Shown: positions 1 through 64,000 of the stretch, piece after piece
Position numbering within the stretch: the stretch's first letter is position 1
Layout of the letters: every line of letters begins with the position of its first letter
Assembly (NCBI RefSeq): GCF_963676685.1
Contig: NC_092346.1
Coordinates: forward strand, 25,916,001 to 25,980,000
Origin: Mytilus edulis
Taxonomy: Eukaryota
DNA length: 64,000 nt
Direction: 5' to 3'
Made by a program: the position numbers and the translations under genes
Notes under the pieces: generated by a model
What the model was told of the DNA's origin: nothing
Seen by the model: the letters and a program-made list of their open reading frames with translations, nothing else
Databases searched by the model: none

Positions 1-176
1 TAATTGGGATTATAAAATATAAACAATAGAGAATAATAGAGAAATTAACAAAGAATATAGAAAAATGGTTTAAAGAATAAAGAAATGACTGATCTTTATA
101 GTATATTGTTTCAATTTTTACAAAAGTCTCGAATTCACCAAAAATAGTGATCTTCATCTGTACATTATCATTTCAG

Positions 177-3100
177 TACCACTGCCATGTATGGTATCTG
201 ACTGGAATGAATGGTCTGCACCTGATGCCACTGGAACTTCCTTCAGATATAGATCTGTCACCAGACCACCAATCAACATGGACGGAGAATGCCCACCATT
301 GATTCAAGCCAAGAAAGGTTGGTTTTTTATTTATTAGATCTAGATGAATTCTAATTCTAAATTGTTCTTTTACTATATTTATACTTCTTAAAACTTTTAA
401 ACAATTATAGAAACATATAAACAAGTTTTACAATCAACAATGATGAATTTGAAGCGTATAACAAAAAGAACCCCAAACCTGCATTTTTCAACTACATAAT
501 AAACAAAGCTATACTGAGATATATAATCACTTATTATAAATCTATTTTACCATTTCAGTCAAACTTCCATGTATTGTGTCTGACTGGAGCACATGGTCAT
601 CACCTGATGCTACAGGCTCTTCATTCAGATGGAGATTCGTCACCAGACCATCAATAAACGGAGGACAAGAATGCCCAGACCTTATACAAGGAAGAAAGGG
701 TATGTTTATTAGATATGTGCAAATAGTCTTGTCATGGGTGTGGTTGTTCTGATTTTTAAAGTTGTACAAAGATTGTAAGGATATGCAAAATAAATTAGAA
801 CATAAATACACAAAAGGTTACTGTATAAAAAAGAAGATGTGGTATGCTTGCCAATGAGACAACTATCCACAAAAGACCAAAATGACACAGACATCAACAA
901 CTATAGGTCACTGTACGGCCTTCAACAATGAGCAAAGCCCATAACGCAAAGTCAGCTATAAAAGGCCCCGATAGGACAATGTAAAACAATTCAAACGAGA
1001 AAACTAATGGCCGTGACTTGATTGTAAGTATTTCTCCTTACCTTTTTAAATTACCTGTTCCTCAATGAAATATTGTACAGTGGTCGCAATGTCATTGTGT
1101 TTCTTTTGCCATTTCAGTACCATTGCCATTGATTGTTTCTGACTGGAACACATGGTCTGCAGCTGATGCAACAGGAAGCTCTTTCAGATGGAGATTCGTC
1201 ACAAGACCAGCAATTAACAAGGATGAACCAATTCCAGAACTCATTGAAGCCAAGAAAAGTAATACATAAATCTCATTATATAGCTTTTTATGTTATAATG
1301 AAATAACAGAACTTTAGGATGAAGAATATAAATGAAAGTGTTTGCAATACTCTAGGTTATGTCAAGTTCCTTAAGGGATTTTGTGTCTTGAATTCTTGAA
1401 ACATGTTCTCACTTTTTTATCTATTTATCTAATATTTCTAAATAAGGGTAATCTATTACTTTCTTTGCTTTCTTACTTTGTTCTTATTCTTACAGATGCC
1501 TTTATTAACCCATCTTTTTTTAAAGCATTGTGGTAAAAACTATATATTTTCATTTCAGTACCACTGCCATGTATGGTATCTGACTGGAATGAATGGTCTG
1601 CATCTGATGCCACTGGAACTTCCTTCAGATATAGATCTGTCACAAGACCACCAATCAACATGGACGGAGAATGCCCACCATTGATCCAAGCCAAGAAAGG
1701 TTGGCATTCTTCCATTTATTGTACTGCATGTTAACTGATTATGACTATAGTAACTGTAGATGTGAATTCAAACCAATTATCTCCCCTTTAATATATTTGA
1801 TCTAGGTTATGCCCCTTTAGAGCAGTGTTCTAGAACTGTGTAAAATTTCACAGTCGTGGACATTCTCCTTTCATATTATTTGAAGGACTATATATGTTCT
1901 TGAACACTGCTTGGAGGGACACAACCTTGATTAAACATATCCAAGGGGAGATAATCAATTTACTTACTTTAATATTGAAATATTTTGCTTATGTTTTGTA
2001 AAGCATAATTCCTCCAAAACTGTGAGAGTCATATTGATAAAACTTTACACAGTTTACCTGAGGATGTATTATCCTTGCCCTACATGGTAAACAGGAAGCT
2101 GTCTCAAAGAGGACTGTAAAAAAAATCTAATTTTCCTTTTATGTAAATTTTTACAGATCTAGTCTTTTATACTTTAAATATACTAATAAATTCACAGGGA
2201 AAGGGTATCAAACACATACCATTCTATTAAATAACTTGTACATTATTACTTACTTTCAGTCAAACTTCCATGTATTGTTACCGACTGGAATGAATGGTCT
2301 GCACCTGATGCTACTGGATCTTCATTCAGATGGAGATTTGTCACCAGACCATCAATTAATGGAGGACAAGAATGTCCAGATCTCATCCAGGGCAAGAAGG
2401 GTATGTTTATTATGAAAAAATATTTTCTCAAAGTTATCAATCATTATTAATTCACTGGTTATCAGAATTTTATATTTAATATAACATCTTAAAGTATGAA
2501 ACTAATTTTCAAGTGCAAAATGCTAAAATCATTAGGTTTAATTTACATAAAACATCTGGGTCTTTGCATACTACTACATAGGTAATGGGTGCAGTACCAA
2601 TCAATAGCCAGACAAAAGAAAATTACATGCTATCTCTTCAAAATAATTTGCTATGGTATCAAATTGTTTATCTTGTCATTACAGTACCACTACCACTTAT
2701 TGTGGGTCCATGGAACACATGGTCTGCTTCTGATGCCACAGGAAGCTCTTTCAGATGGAGATATGTATTGCGACCAGCAATTAACAAAGATGAACCAATT
2801 CCAGAACTCATTGAAGCTAGAAAAGGTAAACAAACCTAGTTATACCTATTGGTTTTTCCTTTGAAGTATATATTATATGTAGAGAAAGTTGTCAGGTATA
2901 TATCAAACAATTATTTCTGTGACTGCATTAAGATGCTTTTCTTCAGATAACTTAACTAATCTGTAATAAATTCCATTTTCATGCCTTATATATCATGTTC
3001 TGTTTTTACAACTCTAGATTCTACTGAAGAGAAAAGGTTCCACTAGGTCATTGTATACAAAGTTTTATCTAGCCTATGTTCAGTTTAAAACAGCTACGTT

Positions 3101-6100
3101 TATGAAAACAGCATTACTTTTTACAGTACTAAAACTCAAAACAAATTTTCAACTTTAATAAACCCAGTATTTTCATACATTTTTTCATAATATTAGCAAT
3201 TGGTTTTTTTTCAGTCAAACTGCCATGTATTGTAACTGACTGGAATGAATGGTCCGCAGCTGATGCTACTGGCTCCTCATTCAGATGGAGATTTGTTACC
3301 AGACCATCAATTAATGGTGGAGCTGAATGTCCAGATCTCATCCAGGGCAAACGAAGTATGCTTTTTTCAAAATATAACTGTGTTAATACTTGGTTCAAAG
3401 ATTAAAAAAAAACACATTAACAAAAAATTCTGAACTCCAGGCTTAATTAATAAAAAGCCTGGTACATTTTACCAAAAATGTTTCCTAAAGCAATATTGTC
3501 TTCAACCCTGTACAAGCAAACAATAACTCTCATAAAGTTTTGAAATGGAAGTTACTATGTGTTTTATTTATATTATAAACAAATGATTATTTTTTAGTTC
3601 CACTGCCATGTCTTGTCAGTGAATGGGTTGAATGGACTGCACCTGATGCTACAGGAACAACATTCAGATACAGATTTGTCACCAGACCACCAATCAACAT
3701 GAAGGGAGAATGTCCACCACTTATACAGGGCAAGAAGAGTAAGTAGACTATTTTTTATCTCAATTTTCAGGGAATGTTGTTTAAATTTTAAATGACTATA
3801 GCATTATCTTTTTCTTTGCTTATATACCACACACATTCTATTTTAAGATATTGATAAATAACTAAGATTTTACACTCATAACATTGCTTTGAATGTGACA
3901 CATTGACCAAATCAAAGTTTGTAACTGCTTGGATAAAGAGAAATTTGAAGTTGCATAGCTTCTTCAATTTAATGTTATATAGCTTCTTGAATTAAAAGTT
4001 ACTGGATAAAAAGGGAGATAATTCAACGTACTTTGCTCATTGCAGTTCCACTGCCATGTTTGGTCTCTGATTGGACCACCTGGTCAGCACCAGATTCAAC
4101 TGGAACATCATTCAGTTATAGAATGGTAACCAGACCAGCAATTAATGGTGGAAAAGAATGTCCAGAACTCATCAGATCTAAGAAAAGTAAGATTTTTTTC
4201 TTACAAAGATAAGAAATAAAGTTTCAGTGAAATTTTAACTGAATTTAATTCAGTAATAATTTAAGTACTCTGAAACAAATTTCCTGTTATATCAGTGCTT
4301 TAGTATTTGCTATTTTAATGTTTTAAATTTTAAATTTTCAAAAGTGGCAACAGTTTTGTATTTCCCAGTAAGATATTTCATCTTATCCATACTCTGAACA
4401 TTTGTTCTTACTCCTCAATTATGTGCCCTTAGCAAAGAATCAGCAAATAACATTTTTAAAATCTTCAGTTTGTCCGGCTAGGGAACAAACCAGTGACTTC
4501 CAACACCTGAGGCAAGCAAACCACAATTGAGACACCATGTTGTATGTTTGAAGCCATTTTGACATATATTTTAATCATGTGTTAAATCTTTCAGTACCAC
4601 TGCCATGTCTTGTCTCTGACTGGACTGAATGGTCAGGTCTTGATGCCACAGGAACATCATTTAGATACAGAATGGTAACCAGACCACCAATCAACATGGA
4701 TGGAGAATGTCCACCATTGATACAAGCCAAGAAAGGTATGTTGTTTAATTTTTCTTTTTATTCATGTATTTCTGACAAAATGTAAAACCGGCTTATAATT
4801 TGTTAATAACAGACATTCTACAGTTGAATGGGAGTGTGGTTTTTGGAAAAGTTGGTTAATATTAAATATTAAATGACTTCCATGCTCTACATTTATTGAA
4901 GACTTCATGATTTTATTTTTGTATTATTTTTGCAGAACCACTGCCATGTCTGGTTTCTGACTGGACTGCATGGACCTCACCAGACTCAACCGGAACTTCA
5001 TACAGTATCAGAATGGTAACCAGACCTGCAATTAATGGAGGAAAAGAATGTCCAGAACTCATCAGATCTAAGAAATGTTAGTTTTTATATTCAAGTTTTA
5101 AATTCCTGACATTACTATGTATGTTAGTACCAACCAAAAATATATCTCTATTGAGTCTGAATATGTTAAAGTTATTAGTAAATACGCAAAATTAATATTC
5201 CATAATTCAAAAAAGCAGAAAATATATACCCACAAAGAACAGTACACCCAGAGAAATCTTAAAGCAATCTTGTGTATCATGTTACCAATCATACTATGAG
5301 GGGGCCTCTTTTATTTTTTTTTTATTGTTTTGCAGTAAGTCTGCCATGTATTGTCAGCGATTGGACAGCATGGAGTGCACCTGATACCACTGGAACAATC
5401 TATAGATTCAGAATGATGACCAGACCTTCACTCAATGGTGGTGCAGAATGTCCAGACTTGTTACAATCCAAAAAAGGTATGATTTTAGATAAGGGTTTCA
5501 TGCCAGACCCTCATGGGTAGTCAAGGTCATTAAAAAAAAAATTGCTTTAAAAAACATGTTCAATAAATTTCCCTTGATAGAAACTAGTAAACATTTATTG
5601 TTGAAAATTATATCTCTAAAAAAAACTGTTTCGTATAGTTTTTGTAAGAAATTTGCATTTTTGTGGATATTTGATCTAATGTATGTATAAATACATTTTT
5701 ATATATAAAATGGGTACTTTTTTAGCATTTAAATTTGTTTTTCCCATGTACCCAAGAAATCAATGAAAATTGGTAACCAACAAATGAATCCACTTTAACT
5801 GTTTTTCTTTAAATAATCTGCAAGACTCAGTCTGATTAAATGGTTTTTATTTTTACAGTAAAATTACCATGTATTGTAACTGACTGGAATGTATGGACTG
5901 CTGTTGATGCCACCGGAGTCTCCTACAGATACAGATATATTGTCCGACCAGCACTTAATGATGGCGCTGAATGTCCACCACTTATACAGTCCAAGAAAGG
6001 TGAGAGTTGTGTCACTGATGATTGTGGGTCAATGTATGTGGAAAGGGGGGGTCAGAGTAATATGTCTTAGTTTGGTAACTTTTTTTCTTGTGCAATGGGA

Positions 6101-9100
6101 CCATATGAAGTAGCTAGAAATGGTTAAAAGTTGTTTTTTTTTAAACCAAATCCAGTTTGTATGGTAACTATAACATAACATTGTAATTTTTTGTTTTAAG
6201 AGCACAGATACATTTTTTTGCAATTGAATTATAATGAACCAAGTGAAATAACAGTAGGACTAAAATCTAGTACACCTTGTCATCAAATTTCTAATTTTGA
6301 CATTTTCTTCTTCTTTTAGTACCACTACCATGTATTGTTAGTGAATGGACAGCATGGACATTGCCAGACCAAACTGGAACAAGATATAGGTACAGAATGA
6401 TGCAGAGACCACCACTCAATGGAGGAAAAGAATGTCCAGATCTTGTACAAATGCAGAAAGGTAGATATATATACATGTATATTCATATAAAGGGACAGGT
6501 TTTAAATTGTTCATGCTCCATGAAAATACAGTGACAATTTTTTTTTCAAGTGTGCACCATACATGTGTACCTCCCGACTTGGAGTACAATAATCCTGTTT
6601 TCAGGGGTCTCCTCCCGTCCTCCCGTTTAGGAGGGGAAAAAAACGTGTATGAAATATTTTATAAATGAAAATGTTCAGCGCCATATAATTTGTTAGGTAG
6701 TACTACGGGTGTAACTGAGTTAAATTTTACCTGTAAATCAAAGAGGATGTATATTTATATGGCTTCACTTGACAGCTTGGGTGTCAAATATACTGGTAAT
6801 CAACAATGTTTACCTTTAGCAAACTGCCGATGTGTAATAAAAACTGTGTATTGGAAGATAATTGAAATCGATTTTGGTTACTTCCCTTTGATTTATCCTG
6901 TTTTAAGTTATTTTTCTTTAAATAAGTTAATTTTTAAGAAGAATACAAAGGATATATATTTTAATCAAATAGTCATAAAAGGATGGTAATTAAATGATTT
7001 TAAATGTCGTGGGACAAATAACTAACATAAATTTAAAAATTATTTGAGGAATATAGACTTCTTTCCAGCTTAAATTGAAATTTATATAAAAAATCTGACA
7101 TTTGTGTACAGGTTGTCAATTATTTAATCACTTATTTGTGAATTTTACCTGCCTTAGAAGTATAGGCAGTCAACAACATAAATCTTAAAAAATAAAAAAC
7201 TAATGAGAGACAGACTCTTCTCATATTTTTTTTTTAATAAAGTGAAATAATTCAAATAGAAAGGGTACAATGATACTATAAACATATTGCATCCTGATGG
7301 AAAGTTGGAAAAAAACACTCTTTTTAAAGACAATTTCTATATCAAACGATTACATGATTACATTTACGACAAAATTTATGTTGATAAAAAACCTCCTGAT
7401 CAAAATTTCCCAATCTCCTGATCTGAGTTTCACAGTCCATCACATGTATGGTGCACAGTATGTCGATCCTTGATACTCGCACATTATACTAATGAAAAAT
7501 TGTTTTTGTCCTATATGTCTGTTAAAAGGAAACTTTTTCAAACAAAATTATTCATCTGGAATATTAATGCATGGAAACAGAACAGAATTAACTCAAAAAA
7601 TTAGAAGTTGTGCACTTCCTTTACTATTTAGTTTTGATCAGATTGATTTCGTATGTTTTTTATAACAAATTATAGATTTTGACTTTTCTGCATAAGTAGA
7701 AATTTGTCAATTCAAAATGGCATTATGTTTACATGCAAATTAGATAAAAACCTTGACAAGAGTTGCTTCATTACTCATACAGTTTTGTTTTTTATTATTA
7801 AATGCAGATCAGATTTTTTTTTTCTTTTATAACATAAACAGAAGTAGGAAGGGGAGAAATATATACTCATGTTAAAAATAACCTTGATTATTATTATTTT
7901 TGCAGTACCACTTCCATGTATTGTAAGTGACTGGACAGAATGGAGTTCACCTGATGCCACCGGAACATCTTACAGAAATAGAATGGTACTCAGACCTCCA
8001 CTTAATGTTGATGGAGAATGTCCACCACTTCTACAATCCAGGAAAAGTAAGCTTTTATTGAATATGATTTTCACAAGTTTGAGTAAAGAATTTTTTTTAT
8101 TTTTTTTTTTAAAGTAATAGGGTCAGAGAATGAGCATTACATTCACAAAAAAAAACAAAATATTAAATTTATTGTTTTACTTTTTCCTTTCAAAACGAAC
8201 AAAATAGATATTCTTTCACTGTAGAAATGATCCAGCCTCATACATGTAATGAATGTGTGTTTTGAATTGAACTCTTATTTACATGGCCTCCATTTTGATC
8301 GAAAACACACATTGTAAGTTCTTATCCCAGTCTTGACAGTAGAAAATGTATATTCAATACAAAATCCAAAGATATTTGGTTATTTTAGGTTAAATTGTGA
8401 AATATGAAATGCTACAAAAGAACAGTTTTTTCGATTCTATTAATAAGACTTGTCACCATTTACATTTGTATCAACATGTATTATACATGTTTTTTGAAAG
8501 TTGAAAATTCACTGACATGTATGTGAGAAATCATGACCAATTGTATTATTTTCAGTCAAACTCCCATGTATTGTTTCTGAATGGACCGAATGGTCTAAAC
8601 CAGATCCACAAGGAACCAGAACCAGAACTAGAGGTGTAGTAAGACCAGCATTAAATGGCGGACAAGAATGTCCAGAATTGATCCAGAGAGACAAAGGTGG
8701 GCATCTTATGTTAACTATTAGTGTAAAATGTGTTTGATATAAGGTTGATTGTTAGGAAATACAATTATCATAATAGATGGGGAAAAAACTGATTTTTACA
8801 GCAGATTCAAAGAAACTTAAAATGTGTATCTATATTCAAACCTTGATTTTTCTTGATTATTAAGTTAAACAAGCTTTTGCAACAATACAATTCTTCTACA
8901 GTGGATTCAATTGTTATTATTTGTAGAATACTAATTTTCTTGTTATCATTATTTTAGAACTAAAAGGTAATAATATATAAATATACAACAAACTTTTACA
9001 TCTTTTATAGTTGAGGTAGACTGTGTAGTATCTGAATGGGGAGTATGGAATTATGCAAACTCTGATGGAATTAGTAAACGAGAGAGAACTGTGATAATAC

Positions 9101-12100
9101 AACCACAAAATGGTGCTGGCAATTGTCCACCATTAGAAGAAACCAGAAAGGGTTAGTATTAGAAACATGCTTAACTATGTTTTGGACAAAAATCCCCTTC
9201 AAAACTTTATTGTATTGCTTTGATGACTTCTACAGAACTCGATAATAGGTCATACAGCTAAATTGTATTAGTGTGTACCTAATACAGTAAATTTAAGTTT
9301 GCTTTTTAAACCATAAGTTCTCCATTAACTATTGTAAATATAAAATACCTGTCAACCTATTGGGACCTATCCAAAGATTTTATAAGCTAGTAGTAAAAGA
9401 TTTAGTAAACAAGGATACTAGGAATCTTATGGTTCACCTTGCGAGTTTAGAGGATATAATCCTTAATCCTTGGGTACTTATTAAAATTGTTTGAGGATTT
9501 TTTAAGAAGTGGTGAACCACAATTTTCAATACATGTATTTCAATTTTTTAACAAAAGAGCTCATTTCCTACAGGCTTGTATGCAAAAAAATACCAAGTAT
9601 CAACAAAACACACTATTTTTATTGAATACATGAAAATTTGTATAGAGAAAAAGTACTATTCCAAGGTAATTATAAATGAATGTTGATTTGGGGTATAAAT
9701 TAGTTAGACAGCATCATAACATCAAAAATAACCAAAAGATATCTAAAAGGCAACAAACCCTCTTCAACAAATATGTCAATATGTAATTATGCCCCTTCAT
9801 TTTCAGTATCAAGAGACTGTGTTGTAACAGAATGGACTTTGTGGACTGCACCAAATCGTGGTGGCAGATCAGAGAGAACAAGAGATGTACAGGTTGCACC
9901 ACTTCATGGTGGAAAACAATGTCCACCACTCAAAGAAACCAGACGAGGTAAAAAGATGTAATAATACATTGTTTCTTGCAACAAAGTAAATACAGAGTGT
10001 TTTTATGTCTGTCTGTCTATCAATGTATTAATAAGAATATTTTTATGAATAAAGACAAATAGAAAAATAGACATTCCGTTGTCCCCAAAAGATAACAGAG
10101 AGGGAGATTGAATAATTCAGATCCCATTTGTTAGCATGATAAATATGGATGATCAAATTAATGCCTCAATTCTTGGTTGTCCAGATATACATTGCCACTA
10201 GTACTTTGCTTTACTGTAATGATAAGAATGGCTTCAAATTAATCAATATGGGCCTCAAATGAGTTTATGACGCTCTTTTTTAATAGCTTATATTCAAAAG
10301 TATACTTGAGAAGTTTGATTGGTTAATAGATTAAAAGGTCATTTCTCAAAAAATATTTTCTGACAAGAAAATGCTATAGTACTTTGGTATAAATCATTTT
10401 TATTTTATTCTTACAACTTATTTTTTTTTTATTTGTTGTAGTTGATCAACCATGTGTTGTAAGTGAATGGTCATACTGGTCCACACCAGACTCTAATGGA
10501 GTTTCAAGAAGAACAAGAGAAGTCCTGAGAGCAACTGTTGGTGAAGGTCAAGGTTGTCCAGATCTCCAAGAAACAAAACAAGGTAAACTTCACTTCTGAT
10601 TATATATGCCTACTGAAATTTATTCCTATTGTTAATTTGCAGTACTTGATTTCAATTTTCTGTCTATAACTTGATGGTAGGGATAGAGAGAATGGCCAAT
10701 TATTAGCCAATAATGGAAAAATACAAAACTTGCCTTAACTTATTGATTAATGGAGGGTACAAAAAGTGAATCAATCTTTAGGTAATTGTTAAACTTTCTA
10801 GTGGGGAGATTTTTAATTGTTTTTTTTTTAAATTTACTGGAAAGTGCCATCAAACAATCATTAAAATTGAGTTCTATTTTTTGTAGTTGATCAACCATGT
10901 ATTGTAAGTGAATGGTCATACTGGTCAACACCAAACAATAATGGAATTTCACAAAGAACAAGAACTGTCCTCCGAGCAGCTGTTGGTAATGGTAAACCAT
11001 GTCCAGAGCTTGAGGAAACAAAGGAGGGTAAGTTAAATTTTACAGTAAGATGTATCCCAGAAGACTACATGAAGTCTATTGGTTGTCATTGGTTGCCATC
11101 TTTCATAAATGTTTTTGTCCCATGCACAATGTGATAACCAGAGCAGATCAATTATGTTTAGGAGTTAAGCCTATTGGAAGTAGAAGTTATATGTGAAATA
11201 AATTTACTAAATTAAACGATACTTACCTTGGTTAAAGTTGAAGTTTAATTTGAATTCTATGTAGTCATAGAATCACTGAAGTGATCAGATGAGAAGCACT
11301 GCGCAACCGCAACCTCAGTCTTTAAAGATACAAATTTTTTGATGATAAAGCCAAGTGGTACTCTACCAATAGCATATATATATAAGCCCTATCAACTACA
11401 CAGCTGTAGGGAGGGTGGTGGCATCTGATCACTTCAGTGATTCTATGACTACATAGAATTCAAATTAAACTTCAACTTTAACCAAGGTAAGTATCGTTTA
11501 ATTTAGTAATTCTATTACGTCATATCACTTCCGCCATCAGATGAGATTTTAAAGCACACTCAAAAAATTTTCAATAGTAACTTTTATATATATAAATGTA
11601 AACAAATCAGTTATTCAACACATTTACATCAAAACTATTAGAATTTATAATTCTCTTGTTATAGAAAGTTGCAAAAGTATTCACATTTGTCCAACCCGCT
11701 TTACTCATGATATCAGCTAAAGAAACATTGTACAGTTTAGCTTTAGACGTAGCTGCAGATCTCACTGAATGAGCACTAAATAGTCGAGTGTCTATACCCG
11801 ATTTTTGCAAAACTACTTTAATCCAACGGGAAATAGTGCTACAAGTAACTGCTTTATGCGGCTTAATGTAACTGATAAGCAACTGCTTAGTGTGAACACG
11901 CAAAATTTTAGTACGTTTAATGTATTCTTTCAAAACAGTATATACACACAACCTCCTATCTGGAGGAAAAGCTCTCAGTTTGACATCTGGATTCTTATAT
12001 CCTGGTCTAGACTGTTTTAATAAAACATCTAAATGAAAAACAAATTCATCCCTCAATTTTTCCATACAGTCAACACTTAAAAACTTCAGTGTTTGTACAC

Positions 12101-15100
12101 GAGTAGCATTTGTTAATGCTATCAACATAACGAGCTTCAACGTTACTTCTTGTAAAGTTAACATATTTACAGGTGAAAGCTTTCTCAAGTAGTTCAAAAC
12201 TAATGATACATCCCATACACAAATGTTCTTAGATTTTGTAGGTCTAAGATTATAAACTCCTTTCATGAATCTGACTACTAAAGGATGTGCTCCTACAAGG
12301 ACATTATCTATCACTAAACCTAGTGCAGAAAGAGCAGATCTTGCTGTATTTATGGAACTGTAGCCAAGACCATTTTCATATAAAATAGTCAAATAATCAA
12401 GCACTATATTTATAGAAATTTGAACTTCACTAATTTTCCTTTCACGACAGTAAGAAAACCACTTTTTGACAAATACTTTGTACTGTTTTTTAGTGCTTTT
12501 TCTCCAAGAGCATAACATGATGCTGGCAGTTTTTGTCGAAATTCCTCTGTCAATAAACTGTTTCCTGATACATGACATATCATTAGATTCAATGTTTTGT
12601 TCAATGGATGGACAGTGTCTTTGTAAGGAAGAGTCAGTAGATCTTTCCTTGCTATAACCAGTATGGGTGTATCGATTAACATCTGCATCACCAGAGTAAA
12701 CCATGCTTGAGTCGGCCATAACGGCGCTACTAAAATAACTGTTGTCTTGTCTTTCAAGATCTTCTGTACACATCTGCCTAGTAAACTGAAAGGAGGAAAT
12801 AAATAGCATTTAAAGTCACTCCAGTCTATAGAAAAAGCATCTATAAAACTAGCATCAGGGTCAGGTTTCCATGAACAAAACCTTTTCAATTGTGAGTTTA
12901 GGCGAGATGCAAATAAATCAATTTGGGGGTCACCCCACAGTTCACATATATCACAAAAAATGTCTTTGTTTAACTGCCATTCAACTTGATCATTGAACTT
13001 TCTAGATTCAGCATCAGCAATAGTATTTTCAGTTCCAGCAATGTGGCTAGCAGTGAGCCACACATTGTGTTTCTTTGCCCAAAACCAAATAGATTTTGCA
13101 ATAGTGTTACAACATATTGACTTAATTCCACCCATTTTATTGACATAGCTTACTGCTGTAGTATTGTCAGTTAATATTTTCACATGTGTAAAACATTTTA
13201 ATTGAGATTCAAATGATTTCAAACCATACAAAATTGCTAGTAATTCTAAATAATTTATATGATATTTTTGTTCATCAGGGGTCCATCTACCTCCTGTTTT
13301 GTTGTCAATAAGTACTGCTCCCCAGCCAGAGAGTGAAGCATCAGTTTGTAAAATAATTTGTGGATTAACTCTGTCCAAAACTCTGGACTGTGTATAAATA
13401 TTACATGACCACCAAATAATTTCTTTTTTCATTTTATCAGTTATTTCCATATTGACATCAAAATTGCCCTTAGCCATCTTTAAGGCATGTATTTTTTCTA
13501 TTTCAATATCTCTATAATACAGTTGACCATAATCAACAGCAGAAAAACTTGAGATTATCAAGCCTATATAACTAGCAACTTCTCTTTATTTTAGAGATTT
13601 GTTTTGAAAGTAATTTTTGACTTTCTTCATGTATCATTTCTTTTTTGTCTAGTGTTAAAGTGACAATCATTTTTTCAGAGTCTATCAAAAACCCTAAAAA
13701 TTGAATTTTCTTTGTAGGTATAAGAACAGATTTTTTCTCATGTACTATGAATCCCAAATCAGATACCAATTTCACAGTATCTTGGATATTTAGACTACAC
13801 TCTGCAATTGTATCGCCTATCAATAAAGAATCATCAATATAACCTATATTGATATGACCTGATCTGCGGAGTGTAGCATATACCACTTTCATAAGTTTTG
13901 TGAATAAACGTGGTGCACTTGCCAACCCATTTGGTAAGCAAGTATATTGATAAATAGAACCTTTCCAAATAAATCTCAAATATTTTTGATATTGCTCATC
14001 AATGGGCACTGAATAATAAGCATGGCGCAGATCGACACTAGCCATGTAACAGTTTTGTTTTATCAAATGCAATGCCATTTCAAAAGTGTCCATTTTAAAA
14101 TGGTGATACTCTACATGTTCATTTAACTTTTTTAAATTTAGTATCATCCGATATTCACCATTCTTTTTTGGTGTCACAAATATTGGTGAAATATATTCTC
14201 CTTCAATAGATTTTACCTTTTCAATTACTTTAATATTCAGTAAATTTTGAATTTCTGCATCTATTATTCTAGTATTATTATCATTTGCTACTATGTTTCT
14301 ATTTTGCTTGATTTTGAATAGGATGTATACCATCAATAAACTCAATGGGACATTTATGAGCAATATCTAAAATATTACTGTCTGAAGTAATTTCTTCCCA
14401 TTTATTTATATAATTTTTCAATCTACCTGCTACAAAATTTATACTCACAACATCAGGTTTTAATATCTGTATTTGTTGTGAGTCCACCTGGAGTTTTTTG
14501 ATTCTCCAGTCTTATCTGAGCCTGCACGAGATGCTCTACCACGGCCGATACCTCTACCACGGCCTGTGCCTCTACCAGAGATCCTAAAATACCAAGGTCT
14601 ACGACCGCCTCTATTAAAGCCACTGTTGAAACCACCCCTTCCTCGGATTTTATTTGATATTCTACTACACTTGCCAATATCATCAACAGTTTTGACCACA
14701 TCACCACCAAATAGGTTTTTATCATAAGGGACTGTAGCATTCAGCAAATGTCCATATTCACCAATGATATCATACTTCATGAGAGTTCTTCTCATCAAGC
14801 ATACTAATCTGTTAGCATGCCCCATCAGAGCGAGTGAATCCATACAGTCGTCTAACATATTACTATGCTCAGTACACTCCTCTTTCTCTAACATTAAATC
14901 TAGTTTATTAATAACTTTAGCCATGACAGTAGCTGTCTTCACAACTACAGACTGAATAGTTTTCATTTTGTTATCGACTGTTTTAGTCTCGGGACTTAAA
15001 ATATCCCAAATAACCTGGTCAGTTTGAACAGTAACGAGACCGTCACAATTTTGTGGTCTCTGAAGTTTCTCATCTTTCATGAGATCTGAAAATCTCTCAG

Positions 15101-18100
15101 AAGAAATCCCATTTCTAAAAATATCAGTTATATTATTAGCCAACTGTTCATTAATAGATGGTGCATACTTTTCACCAGACCTAAATTTTTTGCTCATGCT
15201 AGCAAATCTTGTCTCTTCACAAGAGTCAGATTTTTGTTTCTTACTAGGGGGTTCATCCCTTTTTTCATTATCTGCTTGGACCTCGTCACAAGCGTCATCA
15301 TAACAATCAGACTCGTTTTGATTTTCATCATCATATTGATATTCATCATCATAAAGAGCGTCTATTCTCTTGTGCATGTCATCAACCCTACTGTTGGTTT
15401 TTACTTGTTCAGATCTTATCTGCTTCAATATATCTAGCATTTCATTGTTATTATTAGCGTCACCACTGACACTACTAGTACTAGACTTTGCTTTAGAAGT
15501 GGACGGCGTACTCGAGGAAGGGGGCTTACCCTGAGCAGCAGACTTGGACGAAGCCTTGGAAGTTTTCGACCTTGTTTTAGCCTCCTTTGGTTTATCAAAG
15601 AGTAAAGCATCTTCATCCTCTAATCTTAAATAGTCATCGTCTACACTTGATGCCTTCTTATCAGGCGTTTTCTCTGATTTCTTATCACGAGACTGTATCA
15701 TGGCGTCCGCCATATTTGTTTACAGAATAGTAATCTCAAACCCACACGAGAATGAAAATAATTTCTATAAAAAATTATAAACCAGATTTAATCACATTAA
15801 ATCTTCAATAAATTTATTAATTGACTTCCTCGAAGTCATATAATTAAATAACAAATCAATTTTCAAGGTTGCAATACGAGGTTACTAACACACGTCAGTC
15901 CTCAACGAAAGTTGACAGTACACTGAGGTTGCGGTTGCGCAGTGCTTCTCATCTGATGGCGGAAGTGATATGACGTAATAGAATTTATTTATCTCATGCC
16001 TACATTTCTTGTAGGACATTCATAAATAAAAGTCGTTGCCCTTGGACAGATATTTATAAGTGCATTGGTAGGATACACTGAAATGCTGTTCTTTTATACA
16101 ATGTTTTTTTTTATCTTAAATCAAGCTGTTAGTTTTGTCTATTGTATTGTTTCACATTTTAACAGGTGCTTTTAGACAGAAATATATATAATATTGGTTT
16201 TGTTCATAAACTTAGGTCCTCCACCATGTATTATACATGACTTAATTTGGGAGATTAAAAGTAAGGTATAAAAAAATCAAGAAATCAAAAACATGGAGCT
16301 ACAACTTATTACATCCTTCACTCTTGGTTGCATTACAAAAAGAGACTGACACATATAAAAGTTACATTGATAACAAAGAGTTTTGGAATAAACAAACTTT
16401 GCATACTCAGATATACAACTTATATATGTCATTGTCCATCATACCACATTTCCATATTTTATACTAAATCAAGTTTATTATACATATGTTAGTAGCAGGT
16501 GCTTAAATTTATGAACCATGCAAAAAGGATAAATTCCTTTATAAAAGACATAAAATTACAAGAAACAAAAAAGCTTTGCTCAATGAACCATTCAAGAATA
16601 GTTTTGCATTAAAATATTTTATTGTTTTTGAGGAAATATATTTTTCATATGGCTTTGTTCATTTAACCAAGTCAGAAAAATTACTAATTGATTTTGAGGT
16701 ATTGAACTTTTCAAGGCATTATTTTTTTGTAATGCCAGATGTGGCAATTCTAAATTAACCTGCTGTATATTGCTGGAATAATAAAAAAAAGTATCCACTT
16801 TTTGTTTACACTATGATTGTGCCTTTAGGTCACTTATATTTTTTCAAATGTTTATCTTTAGTTGGAATTGACTGTGTAATGGGTCAATGGACAAATTGGT
16901 CAGAGATGATTGAAGGAGGTCTAGTAACAAGATCTAGAAGAATAATGAAGAAAGGAAACCAATATGGAGAACCATGTGGAGAAACTGCAGAATCCAAAAA
17001 ACGTATGTATTAATTGACCATAGGAAAATTTATTTACTAAAACAAATTTGAGTTATATGATATTTGCCACACAGTAACAAATAAAAAATATCATTAAATG
17101 TGAGACATAATTAGTATTTCAACCACTTTCACATAATTATTTATATATTACTGATAATAGTATTAAAGAGAGGATGAAGATTTAAATCAAGTATAAAACA
17201 TAAACTTTAAGCATGGAAAAATATGTTGTTTTACAATGGGCACAATACATGTGTTAATCAATTTGCTTTGTCAGTCAATTTGTATTCTCAAAAGCTGTTT
17301 AAGGATGTTATCAAAATCACAAGCTTAATAAAATAAAATTGAGAATGGAAATGGGGAATGTGTTAAAGAGAAAACAACCCAGAACAGAAAAAAGCTCAAG
17401 GTTACCAATGGGTTTGCAACACAGCAAGAAAATCATGAGAACTGTTCTGAATTTGTAGTAAAAAGAAGACAGAACAAAAATAGCAACAACAAAAATCTGA
17501 ATTTACGTAGTAGTTAAAATATATATGTGATTTACTAATTTTGCAATTGTAATTTGTAATAAAACATTTAGATTAAAATTGTAATGCTTCAACTGTTATT
17601 TATTTTCTAATATAGTTAAGATTGACTGTGTTGTACTTGAATGGGGAGCATGGACTGTAAATTCCATCACTGGTACTTCAACCAGAAGGAGGGCAATCAA
17701 ACAGGTTGAATTGAACGGAGGAAAACCATGTCCAAAAACATTTGAAACAGAAGAAGGTAAGGATCACTTACACTTAATTGATCACAATTAACTAGCTGAA
17801 AATTTTTGAATTTTCAAAACACTTGAAGGATTTTCTACCCCGGGATTAGATGTCCTTAGCTGTATTTGGAATATTGGGTCCTCAATGTTCTTGAAAAGAA
17901 GAAGGCTTACATAGGCTTTGCCTGTTGCTATATCCAATTCAATTTATTTGTTTTTAAAACATAAACTAATTTAAACGTAGTTCTGGCCAAATTAAATGAT
18001 TTTCCGATTTTACATTGCTGTCACAATCTTTTTATTCAGGTCGGATTTTTTTCAAGAATATTAACTACTACATGATTAATCAATGAAGGATTTGAGACTA

Positions 18101-20390
18101 TTTAAAAATTCTACAATTTGCTGATTTCCATCTTGACAAATATGAGATGCATCAGAAAAAATCTTATTATCAATCCCTTTATTTGCATTGCAGTTTCTAT
18201 CGATTGTGAAGTAGGAAACTGGGGATCATGGGGAGCAGCTCATCCTAAGACTGGCATGAGTGAGAGAACAAGGAAAGTAATCAAAAATCCAAAGAATGGA
18301 GGCAAAGATTGTCCAGAACTTATTGAGAGAAAGAGAGGTTTGTAATCAACACTCTGAAAAAATTCTTCATTACTATTTTTCATACAAAAGCATAAATAAG
18401 CAAACAATCATTTAACACCTTTTTAAAACAACACAACATATGTCATGCTATGTTGTTAATAACAAAAAAACATTTAAAATCAAAACACCTTATTGATTTT
18501 TAAACATCTAATTTATTTTAAAAACTAACTATATAATGCAAACTAATTAAATTTGATTAGATTTTTATATTTGCACCTCCTGTAACTTGTGAACCCTGGT
18601 GATATGAGTCACATGACTTGTTATTTTTAATATTACATTTTTGGGGAAGAATGAAAAGCATCCTTTGTTTCTTATACTTACATGGTATATTACTAAGATA
18701 AAAGGAATCTAATAATATGTTTTTTTCTATAATTAGTTAAGATTGACTGCCGTGTTGGACATTGGGAAGAATGGAGTGAACCATTTGGATTTGGAACAAG
18801 AACAAGAACAAGACGAGTCACACAGCCACCAGCAAATGGTGGTGACAGATGTCCAGATTTAGAACAAGAGGCTCCAGCAGGTATGTTAATTCTTCTTTGT
18901 TTGTAACTAGTTATATATATTTAAGACATACACAAAAAAAGGATTTTTTTCGCCCTTTCATTCCTTAATTGTATTTTGCTTCAGGCAAGTTAATACTATT
19001 TCAGGGGAGATAACTATATTTGCAATAATAAATGTTCTCATTGCTTTGTTACAAGTTCAAATGCCTTAAAAATATAGTAGTGATGTATCTTCACTAGACT
19101 TAAAATTTGATGATTGTGAAGAATATGCATCCTAATGAGTTAAGAAACAAATATTTGGTCCTTTTAAATTGAAACCTCATTTTCTTTCAAATGTATGGTA
19201 AACTGATTTTTTAGTCTATAAAAACTTTCTTATTTTACAGAAATTACTCCTGAGAAAACAGCAGAACACATTATCAAACACTTCATCCGAGGATATAATG
19301 GATCAAGAGATATAATGGTCATCGTAGATTCCTCTGGAAGTATAGGATTAAATTATTTCAAGAAATCTCTTGAAGACTTATACAATCTGTTGTCATACAT
19401 GTGTCCATCACCCGAACCTTACCAACCAAGACAGGGTCAAGGCTACAATCAACTTGGTATGATCCAATTCTCTACTGATGTACAAGACATATTCCACTTT
19501 GGCGAACACAAGAAACTTGCTGATATAAAGAATGCCATTACAAGTACTCCGTATATGGGTGCCACAACATGTACCAGCAAAGCATTGGAACATGTAGCAA
19601 ACAACCATATGCCAAAGGGTAAGTCAAGTTTTTTTTATTGATAAACTTCATGATAATGTCATTTTTTAAGGACCTTGCTGTGCTTAACAAAAAGCATTGT
19701 TCTTTTATAATTACAATTGGGCAATTTTGTTCTATGTTGCAGTTTGAATTCAATTTAAACTTATATATAAAAAAAAAATGTATCACATTGTTCAAGTGGA
19801 GTTTGAAGAAGTGCAACTAATTGAAAAAACTATTCTACCCATACAATGGCAGCGATTTGCTTTCTCTTTCCTGTGAGTATCACAATGATAGAACACATAC
19901 TAATCAGGAACATTAAAATTAGATTAAAAAAAAGTTTTACTTAGATATGGAAATCTTAAAATTTAAAAAAAAAATGAATTAAAATCACGAGTATGTTTTT
20001 AAGGTACATGTAGTATCAATCATAGCACAATATCAGTCATTTGAATCTTTTTTATAAACTTGAACATTATATCATCCTTTATGTATTTTACTTGCAGCAA
20101 GACCAGGTGTCAAGAAACAGATCTTGTTGTTGACAGATGGTTTATACAACTGTAACAAGAAGGAAGTGACTGAAAGATTCGCAAAGGACTTACAAAAAAT
20201 GGGTGAAGTGTATGGAATGATGATCGGTATCCAAGGACAACAAGGAAAGGATCTATTGTCTGGATTGGTTTCACAACCATTGAAAGACCATCTGTACTCA
20301 TCCAGAGACTATAGAGAGTTTTCAGACCTTGTGCGTATCATAAAGAATATTCTGATTAGCACGGGTATGAAGTGTACTTCATTTAACTAA
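177..20390 (+). CDS. 5'-partial multi-exon gene: at least 24 tandem reduced (two-Cys) TSR-like repeats followed by a C-terminal VWA domain; probably a secreted structural/adhesive matrix protein
   Basis: AG/GT-bounded phase 1-1 exons of 141 nt: 177-317, 559-699, 1118-1258, 1559-1699, 2260-2400, 2685-2825, 3215-3355, 3598-3738, 4046-4186, 4595-4735, 4936-5076, 5336-5476, 5859-5999, 6320-6460, 7906-8046, 8556-8696, 9011-9151, 9807-9947, 10442-10582, 10887-11027, 16862-17002, 17616-17756; of 144 nt: 18194-18337, 18737-18880; then VWA exons 19241-19618 and 20098-20390 (TAA). Repeats read C-x-V-S-D/E-W-x-x-W...R-x-R...P-x-N-G-G-x-x-C-P-x-L (F-spondin-type TSR pattern). Secreted/adhesive role is inference. 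Confidence 0.9.
825..1012 (+). repeat. Interspersed repeat family A (aagatgtggtatg...gccaatgagacaact); class uncertain
   Basis: Related copies at about 23575-23738(-), 26205-26310(+), 44281-44545(+) and 61135-61270(-). Confidence 0.7.
6558..7450. mobile_element. Non-autonomous TIR DNA transposon, hAT-like, apparent 6-bp TSD
   Basis: Ends CATACATGTG / CACATGTATG, flanked by GTGCAC at 6552-6557 and 7451-7456; repeated subterminal CTCCCG/CTCCTG motifs at both ends; no credible ORF. Confidence 0.7.
11422..11546. repeat. DIRS internal complementary region (ICR)
   Basis: 11422-11509 is a perfect 88-bp reverse complement of 11204-11291; 11508-11546 is a perfect 39-bp reverse complement of 15947-15985. 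Confidence 0.95.
11607..12809 (-). CDS. DIRS tyrosine recombinase
   Basis: Uninterrupted ORF with catalytic R (ATRV), K (LLKQSR), H-x-x-R (AHSVRS), W (AGW) and Y (FATFY); overlaps the MT region in another frame. True start codon uncertain. Confidence 0.93.
   Translation of the reverse strand: MLFISSFQFTRQMCTEDLERQDNSYFSSAVMADSSMVYSGDADVNRYTHTGYSKERSTDSSLQRHCPSIEQNIESNDMSCIRKQFIDRGISTKTASIMLCSWRKSTKKQYKVFVKKWFSYCRERKISEVQISINIVLDYLTILYENGLGYSSINTARSALSALGLVIDNVLVGAHPLVVRFMKGVYNLRPTKSKNICVWDVSLVLNYLRKLSPVNMLTLQEVTLKLVMLIALTNATRVQTLKFLSVDCMEKLRDEFVFHLDVLLKQSRPGYKNPDVKLRAFPPDRRLCVYTVLKEYIKRTKILRVHTKQLLISYIKPHKAVTCSTISRWIKVVLQKSGIDTRLFSAHSVRSAATSKAKLYNVSLADIMSKAGWTNVNTFATFYNKRIINSNSFDVNVLNN
12410..13575 (-). 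CDS. DIRS pol, RNase H and DNA adenine-methyltransferase-like part
   Basis: RNase H motifs QTDAS.GWG, HINYLELLAI, TDN, ADAESR; MT-like motifs DLFASRLN, DAFSIDW, YLFPPF, APLWPTQAWF. Continues the RT in a different frame. Confidence 0.9.
13572..14487 (-). CDS. DIRS pol, reverse transcriptase part (frameshifted near 14300 and 13580)
   Basis: N-terminal AGRL..W...T.D..IL in frame 14299-14487; RT motifs SPIFVTPKK, RMILNLK, VDLRHAY, LPNGLASAP, YIDD, FLG in frame 13572-14363. Confidence 0.9.
14460..15713 (-). CDS. DIRS ORF1 (gag-like), 417 aa
   Basis: Uninterrupted ATG ORF at the element 5' end; low-complexity N-terminus, RPQNC-type core, LFG motif and RG-rich C-terminus; overlaps the start of pol. 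Confidence 0.8.
   Translation of the reverse strand: MADAMIQSRDKKSEKTPDKKASSVDDDYLRLEDEDALLFDKPKEAKTRSKTSKASSKSAAQGKPPSSSTPSTSKAKSSTSSVSGDANNNNEMLDILKQIRSEQVKTNSRVDDMHKRIDALYDDEYQYDDENQNESDCYDDACDEVQADNEKRDEPPSKKQKSDSCEETRFASMSKKFRSGEKYAPSINEQLANNITDIFRNGISSERFSDLMKDEKLQRPQNCDGLVTVQTDQVIWDILSPETKTVDNKMKTIQSVVVKTATVMAKVINKLDLMLEKEECTEHSNMLDDCMDSLALMGHANRLVCLMRRTLMKYDIIGEYGHLLNATVPYDKNLFGGDVVKTVDDIGKCSRISNKIRGRGGFNSGFNRGGRRPWYFRISGRGTGRGRGIGRGRASRAGSDKTGESKNSRWTHNKYRY
19241..20390 (+). CDS. Two terminal exons encoding the VWA domain of the TSR-array gene
   Basis: Exon 19241-19618 reads ...RDIMVIVDSSGSIG...GMIQFST...YMGATTCTSKAL; exon 20098-20390 reads ARPGVKKQILLLTDG...MKCTSFN*. MIDAS DxSxS, Thr and Asp positions all present; exon phases (1/1) compatible. 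Confidence 0.9.
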
Positions 20391-20420
20391 TCATTTCACA
20401 TTTTATGTATTGTTTTACCT

Positions 20421-20426
20421 AATAAA
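20421..20426 (+). terminator. Probable polyadenylation signal of the TSR/VWA gene
   Basis: AATAAA 30 nt after the stop codon, followed by a GT-rich tract (ttgttattggttgtttt). Confidence 0.6.
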
Positions 20427-20639
20427 AGAGAAGGATATATTGTTATTGGTTGTTTTATTGATTGTTGCAGGATTCATATGACACCTGAAAGAGGGACAAA
20501 AAATAAGGAGTTATCTTATCTTTAATAAGTTTGCTTAATTAAGGTTTCAACCACTCAGGTTAATTAGATTTTAGAATTATTTTTGCTGTATTATTTAAGG
20601 CCTTTTGGTAATTTTTGCGCTAAATGTTTTTATATGTAC

Positions 20640-20840
20640 ATGAGCAACACAACAGATGCCACATGTGGAGCAGGATCTTTTAACCTTCTGGAGCACATGT
20701 AATTGTTGCTCAGTTTTCTGTGTTGTGTTTTGTATGCTATTGTTTGTCTTTTGGTTGGTTTTTTTTCGTTTTTTAGCATGGCATTGTCAGTTCTTTTTTG
20801 ACTTATGTTTGATTACTCCTCTTGGTATATTTCACCAGTC
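20640..20840 (+). mobile_element. Short copy of the 3' tail of the Penelope-like element
   Basis: gccacatgtggagcaggatct...ggagcac...ttagcatggcattgtcagtt matches 55915-56140; further copies at about 21026-21160(-) and 38975-39210(-). Confidence 0.75.
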
Positions 20841-25346: not shown

Positions 25347-27180
25347 TCAAGAACTGTCTTTATGATCTAACAAAGCCGATCGGATTCCAATTTTCTGTAA
25401 TTCATCCACAAGTTCCCCATTTTTGTGCATCTCCACCAACACATCAGAACCTCCTATGAATTCACCATTTAAATAAACCTGGGGTATGGTTGGCCAGTTA
25501 CTGTATTCTTTTATTCCTGGAATAAAAAAAAGATTAAAAGTTTAAAACCATACATATCATTTTGCATATAGTTATGTTAGTTTGATGTCCTGGCAACCAA
25601 TCACAGACTTTCTGAGACAACTTAACTAGTCTTTTTTTAACAACTAACTCATATGTTCCTGCATATCTTTTTTATGACTAGAAAAGATCTTTGATATTAT
25701 TGTTGGGTAAGGTCAAAAGAGCTACATGTATAATCTGACAAATAAAGATGAGTGGGTCTGTCCTAACATAAGCATGATAAAAATTAAAACCAAAGAAAAT
25801 CAAAGTGATGATCATGGTAATTATTTAAAGTTTGCCAAAAGATCAAAGACATTGCCACAAAACCCATACACATTGTAAAACTGTATACTTGAGTAACATG
25901 ACGGACTATGATAATTATAGGTTTCTCTGTATGTTAAGATACCAGACTTCTTTAACTTTCACATCTAAAAGAACGGATTTTTGCTGCTTTCATGTCTTTT
26001 GTGGTAGAGCAGTATATATAAGGTACAAATGTATTTATATTATACATGTTTATATACATGTACTTTGGATATTATTTCGAAAGCAGTTCAGCATTCTTAT
26101 TCATTATACATGTAATACTGCATCTGAAGTATTATACATGTATATATGTCATACATGTATGTATTAGAGCAATCTTTTTTTTCTGTATATTATATTTAAA
26201 GATGTAGGAAGATGTGGTATGAGTGCCAATGAAACAACTCTCAATCAAAAATAACAATTTATAAAAGTTACCCATTATAGGTCAAGGTATGGCCGTTAAC
26301 ACAGAGCATTACAAGAATAAATTCCTAGGAACCCTCAAATCATATTTCTCTATTTTCTTATAAAATGTATAGAATGAAGTTCTGTTTAGAATCATTGCTT
26401 TTGTGAGATTTTTTTTTAATGAAACTTCAAGATAAAGAGGTATTTCAATCTTTCTGTCACTCTGACTTTGTGTTAATAAAAATAGTTGTAAAAATGCGAA
26501 CCAACATGACCAAGCTAAAGTGTTGTTTTATTTGACTCTATCCTTCTGTCCTGGTATCAGTTAACATTAGTACGAGATGAAGTAGTGTGAGATTTCGATT
26601 GTTGTCGTAGTAAAGCGTAGTAAAACACTACTGGTCCTTGAATAACTTACTTTATTTTTTTATCAATTTTAATTGTTGCATAAGAATGTAATACAAAAAT
26701 TCTAAATTATTGTTAAAATCTTCTTCTTCTTCTTCTTCTTTTGTTACAGAAAACCATAAACGTACTGATGTTTACTTTCCGGCGTATGCCTGGTAAATGT
26801 TTTTTTAATAAATTTTAATTTATGTGAATAATTTTTGTCAAAACATAAATTAACAAAATATTTCTTGTTTAAAGTTGTTTTTGGTCATATATTTTCGTAT
26901 TTTCAAATATACCTTGTCTCAAACTTTCGTCTTGAAGAACATTATGTGCTTTAAATTCAACACCATGCATATTTAGACACTGCACTGCCAATCTGCTAAA
27001 GCCACACATGGGCTGATCAGGGGTGCCCTTCATGAATAAAACAACTTTTTTGTCTTTGACAAGACCGTCAATGTGTTCTTTGCTTCCAGCATTTTGTGAA
27101 TAATATGCAAGAAGACGACAATATGTTGACCTGTTCTCAGTATTCAACAAGGACACTGTAGATCGTAGTAGTCTATTCAT
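25347..27180 (-). CDS. GLRX5: Glutaredoxin-related protein 5, mitochondrial (monothiol CGFS glutaredoxin), 145 aa
   Basis: Exon 1 27180-26913 (MNRLLRS...[17 protein letters not shown]...LRQ) and exon 2 25516-25347 ([25 protein letters not shown]...[10 protein letters not shown]). GT-AG phase-1 intron; Arg/Leu/Ser-rich N-terminus resembles a mitochondrial presequence. Confidence 0.96.
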
Positions 27181-27301
27181 CTTCAAGCTTATGCAAGGAA
27201 AACTAATTTTAGCAAGTTCTTTTTATTCTTTCGGCACCCTACAAAGATTTCAAAGATAAATCCCGAGAGTCCATGAAAGCGGTTCCGGTGTACACGAAAA
27301 C
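27181..27301. promoter_or_regulatory. Putative bidirectional promoter between GLRX5 and the ankyrin-GH20 gene
   Basis: Divergent ATGs at 27180(-) and 27302(+); ETS-like CCGGAA on the minus strand at 27283-27288. Confidence 0.65.
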
Positions 27302-54758: not shown

Positions 54759-55278
54759 CATTTGTACTAGTGCCTGTATATACATAAAAGGTTCATCATA
54801 ACAAACGGACAAATATGGTTGTATTTACATGCCAAAAACTCCTCTGAGACTTACCTGTCCAGTTGGAAAAGTTTTTTAATGCCTGGCATCCACTAGATAT
54901 ATAAAAGTTAAATGCATTTTATGTTTCAGAAAGATAAAATCTCTTTTCGATATTAATGGGCATTTTTTTTTCTTCATGCATAAGGTGTGAAAATTAACTA
55001 AGTTGTGGTACAACTTTGAGATGCTCCCTAAGGTAAAAACTTTTGACTTGCATATAAACTTAACTATTTCTTCTGGCATTGTCAAACTGTCACTCTATTG
55101 TAATTTACAAAGATTCTGAAATATTTGCTACTGGTCATAAAACAAAAAATAATAAATCCATAGAAATAGTGAAGCAGTCAACCTGATAAGCGTATAAAAC
55201 CCATGCTAAGAGAGCATGTTGACTGAAATTTTTAATTATAAATACTGAGTTTAGAACTGTCAGATGAGTATATGAAGG

Positions 55279-63793: not shown

Positions 63794-64000
63794 ATTATCA
63801 CTATGCTGATGCTCTGTGAAAAAAATTAAAAAAATTGACTTACCATTATATTTGCCATTGTTAGTGTCATGTCCAAGGCAGAATATAAAATGAAACGCAT
63901 GCAATAATTGCTTTTCAATACTTTGTGCAAAAGAACGCCATGCTTACTGCACTGTGACAAAATTTCAAATGACGTAATGCAGCCTGTGATGTCAAGTGTG

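Follow-up and report, generated by a model that had tools for sequence, protein, structure and literature searches.

The closest described system is the byssal TSP-1 of the pearl oyster Pinctada fucata (pfu_aug1.0_532.1_65503.t1; Liu et al. 2015, PMC4597212). As reported in the section and supplement of that paper used here, TSP-1 consists of a signal peptide, a Gly/Ser-rich tract, 24 TSRs and a VWA domain with MIDAS, is represented by seven peptides in the byssus and is ~48,000-fold enriched in the foot. The same parts describe a Ca-dependent extensibility of the P. fucata byssus and already remark on the likeness of the repeats to complement TSRs. Counted by eye, the printed sequence holds about 31 modules, of which the majority carry two Cys, a small number three, and none is Cys-free; the section and supplement examined carry no remark on the two-Cys nature of these modules. 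Canonical TSRs, according to excerpts of PMC9198472, comprise 50-60 aa with six Cys and a CxxS/TC fucosylation site, and C-mannosylation at WxxW is described, in an excerpt of PMC6954052, to raise the melting point of the UNC-5 TSR by 9 degrees.

The window analysed here is a stretch of 64,000 nucleotides from Mytilus edulis (G000:C3:25916001-25980000), and it contains the spliced, polyadenylated 3′ end of a real, expressed gene. With a probability of about 0.6 we read this gene as encoding a secreted chain of 7,799 aa with 149 modules and a VWA domain, which follows the TSP-1 design and is likely a structural fibre or matrix protein of the mussel foot. It is very probably a member of the bivalve byssal TSP-1 family (signal, Gly-rich tract, short TSR array, VWA). 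While this design has been known since 2015, new features are an array enlarged five-fold, Cys-free modules interspersed among the two-Cys ones and a silk-like tract.

Compared with the parts of the P. fucata report named above, both proteins share the order of parts, tandem modules of about 47 aa with mostly two Cys (C-x4-WxxW-x2-PD-x2-G..RxR..P-x-NGG-x2-CP), a linker before the VWA (TPKQTAEH in P. fucata, TPEKTAEH in the mussel) and a C-terminal VWA with DxSxS. They differ in module number (149 in the mussel vs. 24 reported, or ~31 by eye), in mass (~861 vs. 192 kDa) and in module consensus (VPLPC vs. VPIDC), and only the mussel gene has 21 Cys-free modules and a 475-aa GPGGPF tract inside the array. 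Unlike that of TSP-1, the host byssus of the mussel gene is collagen-based.

Short TSR modules of the window and their predicted fold

A total of 24 TSR-module exons lie at positions 177-18880 of the window, 22 of 141 nt and two of 144 nt, all of them in phase 1-1 with AG/GT ends and an open frame. An earlier sequence-only reading had proposed at least 24 single-exon modules capped by a MIDAS-intact VWA, and both parts hold: the 24 exons are spliced in RNA, and all MIDAS residues are present in the sequence. Modules 126-141 of the gene are found at 177..8696 (16 exons of 141 nt), the more divergent modules 142-145 at 9011..11027 and modules 146-149 at 16862..18880. These are followed by the linker TPEKTAEH with the first half of the VWA, including DSSGS and the MIDAS Thr (GATTCT), at 19241..19618, by the second half with LLTDG and the stop codon at 20098..20390, and by a 3′ UTR with AATAAA at 20391..20445, where RNA ends at ~20432-20445, with poly(A) in one contig. 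All these features are located on the plus strand, as is the intron at 1..176 linking the window to the upstream part of the gene.

As a control for chance, the exon pattern was counted on both strands: positions 1-20400 of the plus strand yielded 25 candidate acceptors, to be set against the 24 exons, while there were none on the minus strand, none in the remaining 43.6 kb and none in each of 20 shuffles, which rules out a chance pattern. Two micro-exon candidates (8958-8966 and 16217-16261) were rejected, as the listed RNA joints skip them. Inside exon 9807-9947 the reads of one run (X24) diverge sharply, with 133 reads continuing differently at 9844, which suggests that module 143 varies between alleles or sister species.

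Two Cys are present in 22 of the 24 modules and none in the two others, encoded by exons 1118-1258 and 2685-2825, in agreement with the proposed maximum of two per module. WxxW occurs in all 24 modules and CxxS/TC in none; the motif counts bear out that the fucosylation site was lost while WxxW was kept. In two respects the sequence-only reading was too general. RxR, said to be kept together with WxxW, is present in 22 of 24 modules and absent from the exons at 4046 and 4936, and the PDATG-like loop is less widespread than claimed (PD[AS][TS]G in 7 and Dx[TS]G in 15 of the 24).

The Pfam profile TSP1_spondin (PF19028) was matched by all nine modules scanned over profile positions ~1-45 of 52 (E 1.6e-10 to 0.036), with only one of the nine passing the Pfam cut-off. 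AlphaFold2, applied to the alignment of the 24 modules, predicted one module with a pLDDT of 92.9. With this predicted module as query, all Foldseek E-values exceeded 0.001; TSR-bearing complement chains occupy the first four rows (TMq 0.81-0.85, rmsd 1.1-1.6 over 46 residues), and the closest solved folds are the TSRs of complement C6/C8/C9. In VIA-align the TSRs of C5b8, thrombospondin-1 and MIC2 rank first (Z 5.1-6.1), and all of the first 18 rows are chains that bear a TSR or resemble one. ESM Atlas returned generic TSR and VWA clusters, a Cys-free module scoring 0.90-0.93 to TSR clusters, which is a lead only. Profile and predicted structure together support the spondin-type (group 2) TSR fold that had been proposed. 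In an alignment with the TSR of complement C9, the two retained Cys fall on Cys 1 and 4 of that module, a pair which may correspond to the 1-4 disulfide of group 2 TSRs.

With the group 2 TSRs of F-spondin, R-spondin and complement C6-C9 the mussel modules share the Trp/Arg ladder, WxxW and the predicted fold; they differ in length (47 instead of 50-60 aa), in having two or no Cys instead of six and in the absence of the POFUT2 site. According to the predicted fold, the module would be a spondin-type TSR from which the cysteine-rich cap is missing both at the CxxxC loop and at the C-terminal tail, while the Trp/Arg ladder and one Cys pair are retained. C-mannose, a modification itself predicted from WxxW, may help to stabilise it. 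A canonical six-Cys TSR protein (SCO-spondin, hemicentin, THSD7) is ruled out by the Cys counts.

Extent and transcription of the gene

The modules of the window form the last fifth of the gene, and the same array runs 85 kb further upstream. After 99 kb upstream of the window had been added, with overlaps that agree, a profile search of the joined 163-kb stretch, which is free of N, revealed 149 modules on the plus strand and one weak unrelated match besides. The gene model comprises 155 coding exons over 105.6 kb in a single frame and encodes 7,799 aa (~861 kDa). All internal junctions are AG/GT and in phase 1, without stop or frame break; one donor site was reset by hand. The upstream part is located at G000:C3:25830833-25915740 (L009-L017, plus strand), and splice sites and phase suggest that these 85 kb reside in one mRNA with the VWA.

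The encoded chain opens with a signal-peptide-like start and a short tract of Ala, Gly and Tyr; six modules, a GPGGPF-rich tract of 475 aa and a further 143 modules follow, and the VWA forms the C-terminus. The first coding exon (L017:3833-4241, ATG at G000:C3:25830833) encodes 18 signal-peptide-like aa, an Ala/Gly/Ser/Tyr/His tract and module 1, and a TATA-like box with a putative non-coding exon is found at L017:~1975-2043. Judged from hydrophobicity, the leader has a hydrophobic core from residue 3 (KD11 2.5) followed by the Ala/Gly/Ser/Tyr tract, and no transmembrane-like window was found. Modules 2-6, including three 3-Cys modules, lie between the first coding exon and the Gly/Pro tract, which is encoded by four exons between modules 6 and 7 (L016:4717-7334; 475 aa, 42% Gly, 22% Pro, 35 GPGG units). 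At the end of this tract (L016:7161-7334) a lone CxxC (aa 815 and 818 of the model) is accompanied by two nearby N-glycosylation sequons; the CxxC and the three 3-Cys modules could form inter-chain links near the N-terminus. Modules 7-125, on the plus strand upstream of the window, hold 19 of the 21 Cys-free modules. The upstream exons and signal peptide that had been sought for the array were found in the form of 125 more modules, the Gly/Pro tract and a gene start with a signal-peptide-like leader. The VWA matches PF00092 (E 4.7e-14), with the MIDAS residues DSSGS at 7606, T7686 and D7716 of the model. Tyr makes up 2.4% of the model, and the modules contain 10% Pro with two to three linker residues.

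Two Cys are found in 125 of the 149 modules, no Cys in 21 and three Cys in 3; no module has exactly one Cys or more than three. WxxW is present in 148 of the 149; WxxWxxW and the POFUT2 site C-x-x-S/T-C are present in none. In the Cys-free class position 4 is always Leu, position 38 is always Thr or Ile and a KDE loop is always present; the class is confined to modules 74-131 and never occupies two consecutive positions. All 21 members lose both Cys, and since they probably have one shared origin, this joint loss counts as one event. Within modules 73-130 the lag-2 identity (0.80) exceeds the lag-1 identity (0.68), and therefore the array likely grew by duplication of mixed pairs and triplets. 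Between directly duplicated blocks the identity, introns included, amounts to 78-92%, and 128 of the 149 modules have distinct protein sequences. For 93 nearest-neighbour pairs among the 140 modules of 141 nt, dN/dS is ~0.19. Open frame, spliced RNA and purifying dN/dS rule out a pseudogene.

Four RNA runs from four studies were mapped to positions 1000-20700 of the window. A total of 62 joints was found; the 15 listed are all GT..AG and match the model, and 14 of these are crossed by X24 (raw reads, recorded as RNA-seq). Run X9 provides one contig of 2,587 nt, the longest RNA piece mapped on the gene, which extends from exon 5336 to poly(A) at 20445. X9 also contains a joint whose translation fits the model only at modules 49-51, which lie ~46 kb upstream, as well as joints between non-adjacent look-alike exons, which may reflect exon skipping or mis-mapping. 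Contig depth was 923 in X9 vs. 4-23 in X1 and X6, depth being a poor measure and the tissues being coded. The VWA exon was also found in at least 20 runs from nine studies, listed without tissue label and none of them listed as RNA.

The intron at 11028-16861 (5.8 kb), which is spliced out in RNA, harbours a DIRS-type retrotransposon on the minus strand (11197..15985) that is not part of the protein. The element has near-perfect inverted repeats at both ends, four open ORFs and little RNA depth. Its ORFs, all on the minus strand, are gag-like (14460-15719, labelled by position and without relevant Pfam match), RT (13572-14366), RNase H and methyltransferase-like (12410-13585, methyltransferase match below the Pfam cut-off) and tyrosine recombinase (11607-12809, match below the Pfam cut-off), so that gag, RT/RNase H/methyltransferase, tyrosine recombinase and inverted terminal repeats of the DIRS1 type are all present. 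A high-copy short repeat lies in an intron at 17330-17380. A monothiol (CGFS) glutaredoxin exon (26869-27222) lies 6.5 kb downstream on the minus strand, opposite to that of the gene. Further features are a retroelement RT fragment (62493-63794, minus strand, Pfam RVT_1) and two ORFs of repeat-derived look without Pfam match (55276-55812, plus strand; 41641-42141, minus strand).

Relatives, paralogues and alternative readings

The homologue set, into which the VWA exon of the window was also searched, contained 295 proteins, 292 of them with a module match; 278 with adjacent repeats were scored and 14 without were left out. The median number of Cys per repeat was at least six in 238 of the scored proteins, 4-5.5 in 39 and two in a single one, and the largest array among them had at most 56 modules. 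The two-Cys exception, P0070 (Pinctada imbricata FSP39_013591, KAK3106142.1; 471 aa), combines a related VWA with six two-Cys modules, and none of its five periods exceeds two Cys. Its identity to the query module (60%) is the highest among the 120 matches listed, and the start of its VWA is 50% identical over 78 aa to the mussel VWA; the protein is uncharacterised, and its model differs in that the N-terminal leader and the central part of the VWA are missing. A single-sequence fold of P0070 for tandem geometry reached a pLDDT of 36 and was unusable. Arrays of four-Cys TSRs of 46-51 aa also occur in P0057, P0086, P0113, P0271 and further proteins, most of them metagenomic and without a name; these arrays represent an intermediate and probably independent shortening of the TSR fold.

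Two further likenesses concern single parts of the chain. Flagelliform silk and elastin-like proteins carry GPGGX tracts, and the mussel tract, GPGG-rich with 64% Gly+Pro, resembles these in composition only. Mytilus PTMP1, likened by description only, is also a byssal matrix VWA protein, with two VWA domains and without a TSR array.

As to identity with an already characterised protein, the family was described in 2015, and for the mussel gene itself no description was found. The literature covered, which leaves out most subscription papers, yielded no description of the 149-module mussel gene or of two-Cys/Cys-free TSR arrays; the M. coruscus byssus proteome and the P. maxima byssus study cited in PMC12817120 may list fragments. 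Homologue and exhaustive profile searches, which have length limits and do not contain P. fucata TSP-1 itself, showed no Mytilus record of the gene or of its paralogue at C3:101.9 Mb among the matches listed. No such gene appeared in the available text or a supplement term search of a M. galloprovincialis byssogenesis study (PMC12607631), and by term search thrombospondin is absent from the main text of a M. coruscus foot paper (PMC13198611).

An mfp-3 cluster in the same genome, with 17 matches (best E of 1.2e-23) against 0 of 14 controls, marks a byssate mytilid; a review offered no mfp-4 motif as an additional marker. A paralogue on the minus strand at G000:C3:101935049-101962015 (L019-L022) combines 22 short TSRs with a MIDAS VWA; with its VPIDC consensus and ~1,350 aa expected it is near P. 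fucata TSP-1 in size, and it may be the true orthologue of that protein; no start exon was located for it. Seven PLPC-type modules were seen at G000:C10:4944600-4993862 (L026-L031, minus strand) in two groups 40 kb apart; no VWA was found near them in 100 kb, and ORFs of C1q-like appearance (by eye) lie between the groups. Six VWA loci are present on C7 at 51.28-51.46 Mb and 64.30-64.32 Mb (L002-L005, L007, L008), and three of these show, within loci of 3 kb, a signal-like leader, one two-Cys TSR and a VWA, the minimal form of the family. Among the candidates scored (150 of 195 and 150 of 190), no further arrays were detected in the genome.

In another mytilid, Perna viridis, the gene pvir_s00068g139 is foot-specific, with 759 TPM vs. 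0.05-0.42 in six other tissues (PMC7971044, Table S4). According to the parts of that paper used here, it encodes at least 2,303 aa with a THSD7B-like best match at 23%, was assigned no function by the authors, and lies on a scaffold with DEX1 and TMED genes eight apart. In the mussel genome the sole DEX1 match and the TMED pair are 150 kb apart on C3 at 8.6-8.8 Mb, 17 Mb from the array gene; PYCR matches are on C5 and C12, not C3, and K2P, with 110 matches, some near both C3 candidates, does not discriminate. The markers agree at contig level only; this large TSR gene, known by description and not by sequence, may be the orthologue of the mussel gene. By homology to the Pinctada byssal TSP-1, the fibre or adhesive role that had been proposed appears likely, and a function of the mussel gene in foot or byssus is the reading we favour, with some reserve.

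The same protein might instead have a structural matrix or mucus role in a different tissue or at a different stage, such as gill, mantle edge, ligament or the larval thread, with the paralogue at C3:101.9 Mb as the byssal form; we regard this as rather unlikely. The low Tyr content is in its favour, 2.4% being low for a DOPA adhesive. The paralogue is indeed nearer to P. fucata TSP-1 in size and consensus, but the Perna foot gene, as far as described, exceeds with its minimum length the size expected of the paralogue, and the sole characterised family member found is byssal (PMC4597212, parts named above). Likewise, the occurrence of the VWA exon in unlabelled runs of nine studies would suit a wider distribution, whereas contig depth, though a poor measure, varies ~40- to 240-fold between runs, as for a tissue-restricted gene.

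Less likely again is that the 7,799-aa model overstates the product, owing to several genes, heavy alternative splicing or an assembly-inflated array. Tandem arrays are difficult to assemble, yet the 163-kb stretch lacks N, its 155 exons show no stop or frame break, and duplicated blocks with their introns are 78-92% and not ~100% identical, with 128 of 149 modules distinct. The mapped RNA reaches no further than 2,587 nt in one piece, and the X9 joints of look-alike exons, if not mis-mapped, would fit skipping. A properdin- or complement-like immune or pattern-binding haemolymph protein, with the array providing avidity, is highly improbable, since the likeness to complement C6/C8/C9 TSRs, also noted in the parts of Liu et al. 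used here (PMC4597212), is a generic one of fold, the model has no MACPF, lectin or protease domain, its modules are homogenised under purifying selection and not diversified, and an elastomer-like tract is present.

Proposed mechanics of the chain

For a structural protein of the foot, a tentative mechanism of lock and hidden length can be outlined, which we consider possible but not probable. All mechanical figures are geometric estimates from assumed lengths, with 0.365 nm per residue and 4-5 nm per module. The protein would be secreted by foot glands, and its modules would stack into a semi-rigid rod of 0.6-0.75 µm. The C4-C38 disulfide would lock 128 modules against unfolding; because the 4-38 bond would carry the load past 34 of the 47 residues, a two-Cys module would extend by only 0.1-1.1 nm. 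The sequence-only reading had suggested that fewer disulfides permit force-induced unfolding, an idea that the ~0-1 nm per module left by this bond would not support. With the single disulfide as a lock, the idea would therefore be reversed for most modules, and stretch would be confined to chosen positions. Each Cys-free module would release ~12-13 nm, giving ~260 nm of hidden length for 21 modules, and the GPGGPF tract would add ~170 nm of contour and supply stretch together with the Cys-free modules. Complete disulfide reduction would free ~1.8-2.0 µm in all. The VWA would bind collagen or another chain via a divalent metal, in line with the Ca-dependent extensibility of the P. fucata byssus.

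A more far-reaching and doubtful view is that Mytilus has a second, non-collagen fibre system derived from a pearl-oyster-type byssus. Its unit would be a 0.86-MDa titin-like filament with a locked rod, Cys-free sacrificial length at every second or third position, a GPGGPF spring and a VWA anchor, and reduction would let each chain lengthen by a further ~1.6 µm, which might act as a redox switch when threads are formed or released.

The 47-aa module is a minimal-looking TSR, small enough for easy expression, and it offers a natural pair of two-Cys and no-Cys forms for tests of disulfide, folding and hidden length; the extensibility model of the family is now directly testable. Among tough, self-healing wet materials the mussel byssus serves as a leading model, and its properties are mostly attributed to collagens and small DOPA proteins. 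With a giant TSP-1 homologue in a mytilid, two fibre chemistries would be linked, and a component would be named that would escape both short-read assembly and gel-based proteomics.
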